From IMG/VR virus record IMGVR_UViG_2529292985_000023: a stretch of 6,296 nt of DNA. The stretch is one strand, 5' to 3'. Below, piece after piece: positions 83-6,042 of the stretch. The first letter of the stretch is position 1, and the number at the start of each line of letters is the position of its first letter. The position numbers were made by a program, and so were the translations under genes. This stretch comes from a virus (lineage: Duplodnaviria > Heunggongvirae > Uroviricota > Caudoviricetes). A model generated the notes under the pieces. That model saw nothing but the letters and a program-made list of their open reading frames with translations. It had not been told where the DNA came from and did no database searches.

Positions 83-504
83 CCTCGCGCATACAGCCGG
101 GCAGTGACGTCATCGTCTGCGCGGAAATGGACGAACAGTGGGGATACGTCGGGGCTAAATCGCGCCAGCGCTGGCTGTTTTACGCGTATGACAGGCTCCG
201 GAAGACGGTTGTTGCGCACGTATTCGGTGAACGCACTATGGCGACGCTGGGGCGTCTTATGAGCTTGCTGTCACCCTTTGACGTGGTGATATGGATGACG
301 GATGGCTGGCCACTGTATGAATCCCGCCTGAAGGGAAAGCTGCACGTAATCAGCAAGCGATATACGCAGCGAATTGAGCGGCATAACCTGAATCTGAGGC
401 AGCACCTGGCACGGCTGGGACGGAAGTCGCTGTCGTTCTCAAAATCGGTGGAGCTGCATGACAAAGTCATCGGGCATTATCTGAACATAAAACACTATCA
501 ATAA
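58..504 (+). CDS. insB: IS1 transposase InsB reading frame, normally expressed as the InsAB' fusion by -1 frameshifting; the first in-frame ATG is at 127
   Basis: Track ORF 127-504 ([22 protein letters not shown]...HYLNIKHYQ) is IS1 InsB. The same frame is open from 34 after a TAG at 31-33. Confidence 0.85.
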
Positions 505-558: not shown

Positions 559-1727
<1,169 letters not shown>

Positions 1728-1799
1728 TGGAGCACCTGTGTTGTTCTGAGGTGAGCATATCACCTCTGTTCAGGTGGCCAAATTCAGTGTGCCACTTCA

Positions 1800-2362
1800 G
1801 AACCAGACGTTCGCTCCTACAGCACCAAATCAGGTCTGGGTGGCGGACCTGACGTATGTTGCCACACAGGAGGGATGGTTGTACCTCGCTGGCATCAAAG
1901 ATGTTTATACGTGCGAAATTGTCGGCTACGCCATGGGAGAGCGCATGACAAAAGAGCTGACAGGTAAAGCCCTGTTTATGGCGCTCAGGAGCCAGCGCCC
2001 ACCTGCCGGGCTAATCCACCACTCTGATCGAGGTTCACAGTACTGCGCATACGATTACCGGGTCATACAGGAGCAGTCTGGTCTGAAAACATCAATGTCG
2101 CGTAAAGGTCACTGTTACGACAACGCTCCGATGGAAAGCTTCTGGGGAACGCTGAAAAATGAGAGCCTGAGCCACTATCGTTTTAATAACCGGGATGAAG
2201 CCATCTCAGTAATACGGGAATACATTGAGATTTTCTACAATCGTCAGCGTCGTCACTCTCGTCTGGGGAATATCTCCCCGGCAGCCTTCAGGGAAAAATA
2301 TCATCAGATGGCTGCTTAAAAAAAGAACAAATGGTAGTGTCCGCTATTGCCAGTACACCTCA
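1800..2362 (+). mobile_element. 3' remnant of a second IS3-family element (IS3 group, possibly IS600-like), truncated on its left by the IS911 insertion
   Basis: Contains an OrfB C-terminal half followed by a plausible terminal IR ending ...GGTAGTGTCCGCTATTGCCAGTACACCTCA at 2362. The IS600 attribution is from memory only. Confidence 0.6.
1801..2319 (+). pseudogene. IS3-family transposase OrfB, C-terminal fragment (catalytic domain); the first 9 codons of the track ORF are read out of the IS911 IR
   Basis: Translation ...PNQVWVADLTYVATQEGWLYLAGIKD...HHSDRGSQYCAYDY...SMSRKGHCYDNAPMESFWGTLKNE...[18 protein letters not shown] aligns by eye with IS3 InsF. No orfA or N-terminal part is present. 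Confidence 0.75.
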
Positions 2363-2834
2363 CCGGGTGGCATGGATAAACCCGGAAGAGAGTAAATCAA
2401 ACCGCGCAATTGGCGTTGCGCTGAATGATACTGCATGTCGCGTATTGAAAAAACAAATCGGGAATCATCACCGTTGGGTATTTGTGTATAAGGAAAGCTG
2501 TACCAAACCAGACGGAACGAAAGCGCCAACAGTCAGGAAGATGCGGTATGACGCAAACACAGCCTGGAAAGCGGCGCTGAGACGAGCAGGTATTGATGAT
2601 TTCAGATTTCACGACTTGAGACACACCTGGGCAAGTTGGCTGGTTCAAGCCGGAGTCCCGTTATCAGTGTTACAGGAAATGGGAGGCTGGGAGTCTATCG
2701 AAATGGTTCGTCGATATGCTCACCTCGCACCTAATCACCTTACCGAACACGCACGGCAAATAGACTCGATTCTGAACCCATCGGTCCCAAATTTGTCCCA
2801 GTCAAGAAATAAGGAACGTACTAATGATGTGTAA
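2363..2834 (+). pseudogene. Tyrosine recombinase (phage/P4-like integrase) C-terminal catalytic fragment, N-terminally truncated by the IS3-family insertion
   Basis: Track ORF 2331-2834 carries the box II motif [10 protein letters not shown] and the catalytic tyrosine region [13 protein letters not shown]. Only about 157 codons remain and the upstream Arg box I region is missing. Confidence 0.8.
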
Positions 2835-3062
2835 CTTATTGATTTAAATGGGATAATAGGAGCAATACACATAGGCGATAAGCTTTGTTTTTGTTGCCTT
2901 TTTTATTGTTCATTTTTTATAGATACCCCCAAAAGTACCCCCATATCTTTTTCCGCCCCTGAAATTTGGTTGTTATTCATACAGCATATCAGGCGGTAAC
3001 GCTCTCCCTTTAACCCACTTATTGTATGATAGTGCTATCCCACAATAAGGAATCAGCCAGCC

Positions 3063-3422
3063 ATGAGAATGACCAGTCGCAAAAAAGAGATACTTAGCTA
3101 CTTTGAACCGGATAACCTCGAATGGGTGACTGGTGAGATTGGTGCGCCGCCGTTCGATGTGTCGGGTGTGGCCTACCTGCTTCATGGCATGGTGTCGTTC
3201 GATAAGCGTCACCAGCTCGAATCAACCCGGCGCACACTGGAAAGCATGGTTGCTGGTGGACTGCTTGAGCGGGTGACAGTGTATGAATCGCGCCAGATAC
3301 GGCGCGGCGGTGATACTAACGCAACGGTCGTGCGCTACGGTTTACCCGGTCAGTGCGCTGTTATGCGCGATACTGGCGGCGCTGACAACGCAATATCAGG
3401 TGAATACATGCGGGTCAGTTAA
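3063..3422 (+). CDS. Hypothetical protein, 119 aa, no family recognised
   Basis: ORF with AAGGA 11 nt upstream of the ATG and an in-frame TAG 33 nt upstream; protein-like composition. 3' end overlaps the convergent gene by 8 bp. Confidence 0.5.
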   Translation: MRMTSRKKEILSYFEPDNLEWVTGEIGAPPFDVSGVAYLLHGMVSFDKRHQLESTRRTLESMVAGGLLERVTVYESRQIRRGGDTNATVVRYGLPGQCAVMRDTGGADNAISGEYMRVS

Positions 3423-3957
3423 TAGCCTGCAATCTGTCGTTGATGCGGCTCAGGTCGTAAACCCGGCGTTCAATATCCAGCATCAGGAAATTGTGGATCT
3501 CGGCCTGCTCAGGATTATCAGACTCTCTGGCCTGTAATAGCAATTCATTGTAACCATGCAAGCCGCCTGAGTTTTCCGCCGGGGTGGTGCCTTTCCCACG
3601 CAGGCAGCTAATGGGCTGATTACTCGTATCGTGTGTTTGCTTCTCCAGCACAATGACGCAATCCCACCAGTCGCCAAAGTCATACGTGTAAACCAGCTTG
3701 TCACCCTCATTCTGGAGCGCCGCCCATAGTGGCGTGATTGCCGCGTTACCCATGCTTTCATCCTCACCCCATACGCGATACTCGCTACCTGGATCACCTT
3801 TACGCCCTTTCTCGAACATATACAGGTGTTCGTCATTCCAGCCAAAAGCTAACTGGATCAAGGCATGAAGTTTACTAAAGGGGATTTGCTCTGGAACCAG
3901 CACACGCCGCCATATAGGTGGTTTGCTGTCTCGGATGGTTATCTTTAGCTGGTACAT
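3415..3957 (-). CDS. Plasmid pRiA4b ORF-3 family protein (PF07929-like; the family also annotated as IS1096 passenger TnpR), 180 aa
   Basis: N-terminus MYQLKITIRDSKPPIWRRVLVP...LHALIQLAFGW and the internal YDFGDWWD signature are as I recall for this family. AGGA lies 6 nt upstream of the ATG. Confidence 0.7.
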   Translation of the reverse strand: MYQLKITIRDSKPPIWRRVLVPEQIPFSKLHALIQLAFGWNDEHLYMFEKGRKGDPGSEYRVWGEDESMGNAAITPLWAALQNEGDKLVYTYDFGDWWDCVIVLEKQTHDTSNQPISCLRGKGTTPAENSGGLHGYNELLLQARESDNPEQAEIHNFLMLDIERRVYDLSRINDRLQAIN

Positions 3958-4077
3958 GCAAATCCTGAATAAATGCGAATCGGAAGGATAACGATACTGA
4001 CGTACTCACAATTCTGTAAAGGTGAATAAAGGAAATTTGCTTAATACGCATAAGTTACATGTGGAATAATCCCATAT

Positions 4078-4263
4078 CTACCTGCGCGGCGCTGGCTTCT
4101 TCCACTGGTAGGCAGGTGCTCGCATCATTTCGCGGAACCTGTCGCGCCGGGCTATATCGGCATTAACTGATCGTTCTATCTCCCGTTGATCTGCCTGTGT
4201 AAGCTGGTGGCCTCCGTGCTCAAGTTTGGCGATGGTCAATAAGGCTATTTCGCGTGGTGTCAT
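4078..4263 (-). CDS. Small hypothetical protein, 61 aa, basic C-terminus
   Basis: ORF with GAGGA 8 nt upstream of the ATG; same strand as the PerC-like and pRiA4b ORF-3 genes. No family recognised. Confidence 0.45.
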   Translation of the reverse strand: MTPREIALLTIAKLEHGGHQLTQADQREIERSVNADIARRDRFREMMRAPAYQWKKPAPRR

Positions 4264-4560
4264 ACGTCATATCCTCTGGAAGGATGAAACACGCCCGGAT
4301 TAAATTTCATTTTTCGCGGGTATAAAAAAACGATGGGGCGGGCAGTCCCGGATAGTCAGGGCTGTAGAGATTTGACTACCCCCTCCCCACTGTATTCAGG
4401 TTACTGCTATTCCGTTAAGCGCTGCTTACGGGGATAGCTGCGTTGTGATTTTGACCATTCAGGTCGCCGCTATTTCCTCACCGATTGGGTGCTACGCGCG
4501 CGCGTACTTGTCCCGAAATACCAGAAACCGCCAGCCAGAGGATGATTTCCCTCTGGTGGT

Positions 4561-4842
4561 CTACCTTTGCCTCTTGCCGCCATTTAACCGGAAGGCGTTA
4601 CCGTTCGGTTGCGCTATCCCCATGCGGTGTTGCGTTTCGGTAACAGCTTTATGCAGGTCGCCAAATTCCTCAACCTTCACGGGCGGGCGCTTCACGTTCT
4701 CCAGACACGTTTCACGGCGGCGCTTTATCCATTCCCGATCATCGTCCTCGGAGCATAACAGCATGACTTCCATCCATCGTGCGGCAGCTCTCCGGTATAG
4801 CCCTTTTGACTCCAGCTCTTCAGCTTTCCTGTCCCTTATCAT
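4561..4842 (-). CDS. PerC-family transcriptional activator homologue (PerC/Pch-like), 93 aa
   Basis: Translation MIRDRKAEELESKGLYRRAAARWMEVM...DDDREWIKRRRETCLENV fits the E-LE-GxxRRAAxRW-V...REWI-RR-C pattern I recall for PerC/Pch proteins. GAGAGG lies 6 nt upstream of the ATG. Confidence 0.6.
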   Translation of the reverse strand: MIRDRKAEELESKGLYRRAAARWMEVMLLCSEDDDREWIKRRRETCLENVKRPPVKVEEFGDLHKAVTETQHRMGIAQPNGNAFRLNGGKRQR

Positions 4843-5147: not shown

Positions 5148-5549
5148 TTGCAGGATGAGTTTAATCGGTCTGTTCTCGCTTCTGGAGGGGATAAAACCTC
5201 CTGGCTTGTTGATGCGATTCGCATGAAGCTGGGACAGCCGGAAAAGTCTATTGATTCACGAATGCTTGGGCTGGTGGAGCGCATGGAAAAAGCCGCTGCG
5301 TCGCTTATTGCCGGAAAGCCGAACATCCCACCAAAGCCATATAACGAAACGGCAGTTATAAAGATCATTGCCGATACCATCCAACAGGGATTTGATAATG
5401 GGCGTGTGATAGCTGAACGGATCAATGAAGCAGGCTATCAAACAAAAGCTGGTAAAGCGTGGGATAAAGATATTTACAGCGCGTGGAAGCGTCAGGGAAG
5501 CAATGCTGAAAATTTAAAAGCGGTGATTGATTGTAAGGTCAGCGTATAA
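5148..5549 (+). CDS. Hypothetical protein, 133 aa from a TTG start; probably the downstream part of a ribbon-helix-helix-like regulator whose frame begins at ATG 5094 and is interrupted by TAA at 5145-5147
   Basis: Track ORF; no Shine-Dalgarno before the TTG. The same frame upstream reads MVFAMSKSNLIAFRIPS*, giving a beta-strand/helix/GG-turn/helix layout typical of Arc/CopG-type RHH domains across the stop. Confidence 0.5.
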   Translation: MQDEFNRSVLASGGDKTSWLVDAIRMKLGQPEKSIDSRMLGLVERMEKAAASLIAGKPNIPPKPYNETAVIKIIADTIQQGFDNGRVIAERINEAGYQTKAGKAWDKDIYSAWKRQGSNAENLKAVIDCKVSV

Positions 5550-5640: not shown

Positions 5641-6042
5641 GTGGGAACCAAAGTGTCAGATATGCAGAAAAATGTGAATCCCGGCAGGCGAAAAGGCTGC
5701 CCTAATTATCCTCCCGAATTTAAACAGCAGCTCGTTGCTGCCTCCTGTGAACCCGGGATATCCATCTCAAAACTTGCTCTTGAAAATGGCATTAACGCCA
5801 ATCTGTTGTTCAAATGGCGACAACAATGGCGCGAGGGAAAGCTGCTATTACCTTCTTCAGAGAGCCCCCAGCTACTTCCTGTGACTCTCGATGCAGCTGC
5901 CGAACAGCCAGAATCGCTCGCAGAGGATCCGGAAACCCTCAGTATCAGCTGTGAGGTAACGTTCCGGCACGGGACGCTCCGCTTCAATGGCAATGTCAGC
6001 GAAAAGCTCCTGACTCTGCTGATACAGGAACTGAAGCGATGA
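5641..6042 (+). CDS. tnpA: IS66-family accessory protein TnpA (orf1); GTG start at 5641, alternative ATG at 5662
   Basis: Translation ...PEFKQQLVAASCEPGISISKLALENGINANLLFKWRQQWREGKL is characteristic of IS66 orf1 proteins. Confidence 0.85.
   Translation: MGTKVSDMQKNVNPGRRKGCPNYPPEFKQQLVAASCEPGISISKLALENGINANLLFKWRQQWREGKLLLPSSESPQLLPVTLDAAAEQPESLAEDPETLSISCEVTFRHGTLRFNGNVSEKLLTLLIQELKR

Follow-up and report, generated by a model that had tools for sequence, protein, structure and literature searches.

The stretch of DNA analysed here (6,296 nucleotides, IMG/VR virus record IMGVR_UViG_2529292985_000023; hereafter the window) contains two genes, p119 and p180, that converge and share their last bases. 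The shared segment, TCAGTTAA, is made up of the two stop codons and 2 sense bases (3418-3419), since the TAA of p119 occupies 3420-3422 and the TGA of p180, which is on the minus strand, reads as TCA at 3415-3417. The coordinates, strands and 8-bp overlap given in an initial annotation of this DNA agree exactly with the list of open reading frames (ORFs) and with the sequence. Both ORFs are real genes, and both are under purifying selection (pairwise dN/dS 0.06-0.19 for each). The positions of the pair and of the other features of the window are collected in Table 1.

Table 1. The p119-p180 pair, the elements that accompany it and the remaining features of the window. IS, insertion sequence; aa, amino acids.
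Feature	Position	Strand	Remarks
p119 gene	3063..3422	+	119 aa
p180 gene	3415..3957	-	180 aa, PF07929
Convergent overlap TCAGTTAA	3415..3422	.	8 bp, read from sequence
Near-perfect palindrome CTTATTGTATGATAG-TG-CTATCCCACAATAAG	3018..3049	.	32 bp; candidate operator/promoter of p119
p180 upstream region	3958..4077	-	120 bp, travels with p180
att core copy GATAATAGGA	2852..2861	.	Reverse complement of published TCCTATTATC; copy of thrW 3' end
p61	4078..4263	-	Conserved backbone gene, 61 aa; phrog_7271, E=2e-6
PerC/ANR-family regulator	4561..4842	-	EcCIMP1_025 homologue; Pfam PerC, E=1.2e-30
p133	5148-5549		Unnamed conserved backbone gene
Tyrosine integrase C-terminal fragment	2331..2834	+	167 aa; Pfam Phage_integrase, E=5.6e-32, profile positions 52-171 only
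IS1 InsB-like ORF	127-504		
IS3-family element	orfB 559-1398, orfA 1425-1763	-	
IS3-family integrase-core fragment	1774-2319		
IS66-family TnpA-like ORF	5641-6042		

p180 is a protein of the pRiA4b ORF-3-like family (PF07929) with an MM3350-like, beta-grasp-like fold. Its residues 2-170 align with positions 3-167 of the 173-position Pfam profile at 144.7 bits (cut-off 26.6; E=3e-42), which bears out the family assignment made in the initial annotation, and it matches PDB entry 2I1S (MM3350, annotated as hypothetical) with E=4e-21. We know of no member of PF07929 with known function. The family had also been described as a recurrent passenger of mobile elements, and this holds: its genes ride ISAzba1-group Mutator-like transposons (PMC3942029), and one is found in a plasmid region with ISKpn19 and qnrS1. 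There (locus L250, NZ_LC483179.1, 3946-7722) a 23%-identical paralogue, WP_012477564.1, lies between two serine recombinase genes, by ISKpn19 and qnrS1. Altogether 2,690 plasmid records match PF07929. Among the sampled rows of the ranking, one and the same match at 22.8% identity comes up repeatedly on enterobacterial plasmids of various sizes, and paralogues of the WP_012477564.1 type probably supply most of the 2,690 records. The enterobacterial p180 clade is narrow, with about 25 clusters at 57-97% identity followed by a gap to 45% or less, and it is carried by satellites of the phage-inducible chromosomal island (PICI) type, not by ISAzba1/ISKra4-type transposons or repABC plasmids.

p119 is without a recognisable family, as had been noted from the sequence; Pfam, NCBIfam, PHROGs and PADLOC were all blank for it. 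Its profile retrieved only noise from PDB sequences (E=0.6), and an exhaustive HMMER profile search of 1.84 billion representatives returned only 93 proteins, many of them fragments and none of them named or annotated. The predicted structure is a winged helix, with a helix-turn-helix (HTH) core followed by a beta-hairpin wing, to which are added extra N-terminal helices and a 25-residue C-terminal tail of low confidence. A fold search of BFVD with p119 gave generic HTH proteins and one unnamed homologue. The extra helices and the tail set p119 apart from small autoregulated winged-helix regulators (MarR, ArsR, BlaI/MecI), and by sequence (Pfam, NCBIfam) it is a member of none of the MarR, ArsR, BlaI/MecI and PadR groups. 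Homologous clusters number 542; all the named ones are from Enterobacterales, and many residues are invariant. Phage genomes are nearly free of the gene, with 1 weak match in 50,697. Many PICI-like elements of Enterobacterales end with p119; in O157:H7, for instance, a PICI-like island between yicC and dinD carries a p119 that converges directly on PerC.

The island to which the pair belongs could be identified. EcCIMP1 is an experimentally verified PICI of E. coli MP1 (Pick, Stadel & Raivio, ISME J 2025; PMC11773190). It resides at thrW and is excised and mobilised by the helper phage Kapi1; its bounds, 3,565,708-3,585,670, were set by sequencing the circularisation junction, and its core attachment (att) sequence is TCCTATTATC (PMC11773190). 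Excision and circularisation require int and alpA, a second AlpA-like gene acting as an accessory excisionase (PMC11773190). The island contributes to superinfection immunity against Kapi1, yet PADLOC and DefenseFinder detect no system there, and experiments showed that its PerC-family product EcCIMP1_025 silences LEE1 in C. rodentium (PMC11773190).

In the MP1 record p119 (3,565,919-3,566,278) and p180 (3,566,271-3,566,813) both lie within the published PICI bounds, p119 starting 211 bp inside the sequenced boundary. After p180 come p61, the PerC-like EcCIMP1_025, alpA_1, phage-derived genes, the primase, alpA, int and thrW. The window has the same gene order as EcCIMP1 and a copy of the core att, and its p119 with leader (3018-3422) is 99.8% identical to MP1. 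Copies of the block in loci L001 and L002 show 99.7-99.8% DNA identity, with p180 and p61 products that bear the accessions annotated in MP1, and the PerC protein of the window shares 98.9% identity with its counterpart in NC101 and O111, whose accession, WP_000617443.1, is again the one annotated in MP1. The sequence GATAATAGGA equals the 3' end of the tRNA-Thr of L001, and at 2852-2861 it marks the integrase-distal end of the PICI. Among 5,426 complete E. coli genomes the block 2850-4300 is present in 384, chromosomal every time, and the islands that hold it are at tRNA-Thr (thrW), between proA and yagU/ykgL. From the position within the sequenced bounds in MP1 and from the att core it therefore follows that an EcCIMP1-type satellite closes, on its integrase-distal side, with p119 and p180 as its final two genes, so that the island location suggested for them initially can now be given a name. 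Compared with EcCIMP1 the copy in the window is decayed, with IS elements and an integrase fragment on its left, while on its right it ends with p133, which is absent from MP1 and present in O111:H8, and then the IS66-family tnpA. No EcCIMP1-type integrase, AlpA or primase was found within the 6.3-kb window.

We then compared loci, cited below by number, that were fetched by the p119 profile (one genome per species; IMG/VR) and by the p180 profile (metagenomes; IMG/VR), both proteins being scored by hidden Markov models on six-frame ORFs. For the counts we used species loci with a full-length p119 and room downstream (n=27) and viral contigs with p119 (n=50). p180 lay beside p119 in 8 of the 27 species loci and 10 of the 50 viral contigs, and p119 was alone in 19 and 40, respectively. 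Seen from the other gene, all 59 enterobacterial p180-clade loci with enough flanking DNA have p119 as the neighbour, with identical overlap geometry. A p180 from Serratia (L039, 76% identity) adjoins a Phd-Fic pair and has no p119, and the 72 PF07929 loci that are distant, at 45% identity or less, yielded no p119 relative. Co-occurrence, which had been proposed as the check on the pair, thus proved to be one-sided.

Homology of the window to p180-less loci (e.g. L010) runs from 3018 to 3415 and picks up again at 4078, where p61 has its stop. These breakpoints define p180 and its 120-bp upstream region as a discrete 662-bp cassette, 3416-4077. What is more, the loci with p180 fall into two patches when p119 is placed in a neighbour-joining tree: the p180-less L010 and L011 are nested in the main one, and the p180-less L210-L219 are sister to the second. 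p180 has therefore been gained or lost while p119 stayed, and p119 is under purifying selection in the loci where p180 is lacking. Another candidate for a distant (61%) pair, P0146/L040, turned out to be a frameshifted close relative and was dropped from the deep evidence. In L014, which holds the most divergent pair, the gene immediately past p180 codes for a transposase of the Mutator family (IS256-like; 1114-2367, counted from the p119 start). Because PF07929 genes are known passengers of Mutator-like transposons, this transposase could hint at how the cassette first arrived.

The tight two-gene module raised initially as a candidate is not supported, in view of the one-sided co-occurrence, the separate 662-bp cassette, the convergent orientation and a junction that is not p180-specific. 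We consider it probable that the pair is instead two neighbouring but independent modules at the integrase-distal end of a PICI of the EcCIMP1 type. The first (3018-3422) would be self-contained and consist of the palindrome and p119, with which the element ends and whose transcription would run inward from the att side. The second (3416-4077) would be a single-gene cargo, p180 with its own 120-bp upstream region, placed in a variable slot between p119 and the p61/PerC backbone and acting on its own. The role that its position makes most likely for p180 would be an accessory one in the conflict between phage, satellite and host.

Several points weigh against this arrangement of two modules. 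For the p180 clade the p119 neighbour and the overlap are invariant with one exception, and this holds in the deepest pair, L014/L087, where amino-acid identity is 71-74% and dS is about 1.7 for both genes; after so long a co-inheritance, some functional dependence of p180 on p119 is conceivable. Most of the 59 loci are near-identical and E. coli-like, and so they amount to few independent observations. p180 could be the last gene of a leftward PerC-p61 transcript, and the promoter-like site upstream of it (sigma-70-like TTTACA-18-TATCGT at 4020->3991) is weak, such sites being no more frequent in the region than expected by chance. Finally, the putative DNA binding by p119 and its use of the palindrome rest on the predicted fold and on conservation only.

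The same comparisons bear on whether the pair could be a functional two-gene system, be it toxin-antitoxin, abortive infection or defence, with p180 as the effector and p119 as its neutraliser or transcriptional controller. The overlap that never varies in the 59 loci and the similar divergence of both genes in the deepest pair would fit such a system. On the other hand, p119 mostly occurs without p180 and is still under purifying selection there, p180 occurs without p119 in Serratia, p119 is missing from all 72 distant PF07929 loci, and the genes are convergent and do not form an operon. In our judgement a two-gene system is quite unlikely.

At the junction itself, neither strand shows an intrinsic-terminator-like site or an unusually stable hairpin above shuffled controls. 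To the extent that sequence can tell, then, the initial annotation was right that a terminator has no room here. The tight convergent junction is not peculiar to p180. In p180-less loci the usual convergent neighbour of p119 is p61, which has 43 cluster members across the fetched loci and adjoins or overlaps p119 in L010, L019, L022 and L210-L219, with a 4-bp overlap in L210-L219 and a gap of 17-27 bp in L010, L019 and L022. The native end of p119 in the p180-less locus L196 is TCAGTTAA, and that of the Serratia p180, read on the p119 strand, is TTAGTTAAG. As the two native ends are alike, the overlap can be explained by joining at a short resemblance, and we infer that it arose in this way. 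It would then be a by-product of the cassette joining the p119 end, where the native 3' ends already resembled each other (T-A-GTTAA), and would have been inherited since, insertion and compaction being its sources. A 9-nt likeness to the p180 3' end, GAGCCTGTA, found after the p119 stop in L013 and L029, was considered and rejected as too short for a deletion scar.

The junction could also matter at the level of RNA. Convergent transcription without a terminator might make p119 and a leftward PerC-p61-p180 operon mutually antagonistic, so that p119 on would mean the quiescent state and the leftward operon on the induced state, p180 being merely the last gene. Consistent with this, terminator-like sites and stable hairpins are lacking on both strands, the junction is kept tight whatever the partner (8 bp of overlap with p180, 4 bp with p61 in L210-L219, gaps of 17-27 bp in L010, L019 and L022), and p119 and alpA_1 are the sole coding sequences on that strand of the MP1 island. 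Many loci, however, have hundreds to thousands of bases between p119 and the next gene, so the tight junction is not universal, and genome compaction commonly leaves convergent genes sharing a few bases at their stop codons. Antagonism of this kind is compatible with the architecture and would not be specific to p180; we regard it as unlikely to be what couples the pair.

The palindrome lies directly 5' of the p119 ribosome-binding site, runs into it and contains a -10-like TATGAT. It occurs once in the window and once in EcCIMP1, and the homology blocks between loci open exactly at 3018. Of 55 distinct regions examined upstream of p119, all keep it except two; in these exceptions the gene start, which is model-based, is mis-set, the motif lying further upstream in L235 and not being seen in L030. 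It persists even where p119 is only 55-60% identical and the sequence beyond -45 is unrelated. An RNA-hairpin reading of 3018-3049 was rejected: 90% of cells pair, but the covariation score was reached by 49 of 500 shuffles. The one variable position of the palindrome is unpaired in 13 of 37 sequences by the alignment pair count. In view of this lack of compensatory covariation, a protein-binding DNA site is preferred over an RNA hairpin, and the palindrome is plausibly p119's own operator, overlapping the TATGAT. Taken with the predicted fold, its conservation suggests that p119 may bind the palindrome ahead of its own gene and thereby regulate itself. In L027 the leader motif is present a second time, in tandem (cttaatgtaggatagaagatgcctacaataagg), about 60-110 bp ahead of p119; this copy is followed by no ORF and is possibly the remnant of a duplicated or replaced p119 module.

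A circular record from K. pneumoniae (L251, NZ_CP033626.1, 22,859 bp), deposited as a circular non-mobilizable plasmid ('plasmid unnamed1'), looks like the excised form of such an island. Here p180 and p119 converge (p180 -> <- p119), and p119 is followed by the palindrome, 443 bp and the integrase gene (->), so that p119 and int diverge across the circle junction. The record also contains genes for an AlpA-like HTH protein, an antirepressor, Icd and a tape-measure protein, and it probably represents not a plasmid but a satellite or phage-like element that had excised and was assembled as a circle. After excision and circularisation of an EcCIMP1-type island, p119 and the integrase gene would likewise diverge across the att junction.

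This geometry invites a reading of p119 as a recombination directionality or integration-control factor at the att-proximal end, with p180 as unrelated cargo. Excisionases are commonly small winged-helix proteins. p119 is always terminal and att-proximal, 211 bp from the boundary in EcCIMP1 and 330-820 bp from host fis elsewhere, and it is divergent from int in the K. pneumoniae circle. The palindrome, however, is about 170 bp from the att core and not at the core, and in EcCIMP1 the roles in question are filled by int, alpA and the accessory AlpA-like excisionase (PMC11773190). With alpA and int accounting for excision, no role seems to be left unfilled in EcCIMP1; the position of p119 is compatible with a directionality factor, but we consider one improbable.

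The slot next to p119 varies greatly among relatives. The first backbone gene beyond p119 (p61, p133 or PerC) lies -3 to about 3,400 bp from the p119 stop, and across loci the slot holds nothing, p180, a SocA/Panacea pair, a PemK/MazF-like toxin, or unknown genes. Further occupants are an IrrE/M78 peptidase resembling PADLOC capP/RmrA together with a membrane protein, and IS elements of the Mutator and DDE types. The SocA/Panacea-domain gene (PF13274) is accompanied by an upstream partner of 145 aa without known family in L007 (938-2067 after the p119 start), L196 and L210-L219, and in L007 this pair and p180 are in the slot together; it resembles a toxin-antitoxin pair of the PanA type whose toxin has yet to be described. 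Hot spots for accessory (immune) genes at the ends of PICIs and other satellites are said to have been described by Rousset et al. in 2022. PICIs are reported to carry immune systems at their 5' or 3' ends (PMC11364771, which cites Fillol-Salom et al. 2022 for such hot spots). p180 likewise occupies a variable 3' (integrase-distal) slot, in which relatives hold toxin-antitoxin-like and defence-like genes. Unlike those end-located immune systems, neither p119 nor p180 matches any PADLOC model; with the PADLOC-DB 2.0 models at E<=1, no match was obtained for p119, p180, p61, PerC or p133.

For the two-gene reading these results again cut both ways. Bona fide toxin-antitoxin-like cargo in the slot of relatives lends it some weight, as do the predicted DNA-binding fold of p119, typical of antitoxins and regulators, and the immunity phenotype of EcCIMP1 in an island where PADLOC and DefenseFinder detect no system (PMC11773190). 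PADLOC is blank for both proteins, however, and the sole p119 palindrome is at p119 itself, not at p180. Like type II toxin-antitoxin modules, the pair consists of two small adjacent genes on a mobile element, one of them with a DNA-binding fold. Such modules, on the other hand, are co-directional and co-transcribed, whereas p119 and p180 converge; their partners co-occur obligately, whereas p119 and p180 are each found alone; and p180, with its beta-grasp-like fold of the MM3350 type, has no known toxin fold. The toxin-antitoxin reading of the pair is thus poorly supported. Within the reading of two independent modules, a defence role for p180 alone is possible because of the superinfection-immunity phenotype of EcCIMP1 and the position of p180; we give only a small chance to p180, with or without p119, being behind the EcCIMP1-dependent superinfection immunity against the helper phage Kapi1.

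The remaining features of the window lie outside the pair. The integrase fragment at 2331-2834 belongs to a neighbouring element and was truncated by IS insertions, and IS-derived ORFs are found directly upstream of it. The att core follows right after the stop of this foreign fragment, which suggests two tandem elements, the left one destroyed by IS insertions. The ISs form a dense cluster at 127-2319, with a further one at 5641-6042. No match to the window as a whole was found in any complete E. coli genome, so its source may be an IS-rich relative such as Shigella. A search of the window against Rfam gave no match. Of the two backbone genes other than PerC, p133 has 23 members in the fetched loci, and no Pfam family was found for p61 or p133.

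Cargo slots at PICI ends, the island type and the PF07929 family are already known. The p119 family with its palindrome, and p180 as an alternative occupant of the slot, appear to be undescribed in the databases and papers searched. For annotation, the locus counsels caution: island genes that overlap tightly do not always make up a module, and what could pass for one at this locus is a backbone gene beside an accessory slot. With p119 comes a family, so far without a name, whose genes mark where many enterobacterial satellites end and whose palindrome is strikingly conserved; there is a small chance that gene and palindrome together constitute a new kind of satellite end-regulator that reads the integrated versus the circular state. 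PF07929, for its part, is carried by thousands of plasmids, transposons and islands. EcCIMP1, which carries the pair, lends itself to genetic work, its mobility with Kapi1 has been demonstrated, and its immunity phenotype is unexplained; if p180 were behind the immunity to Kapi1, this would be the first role assigned to PF07929, as a satellite-borne anti-phage gene.

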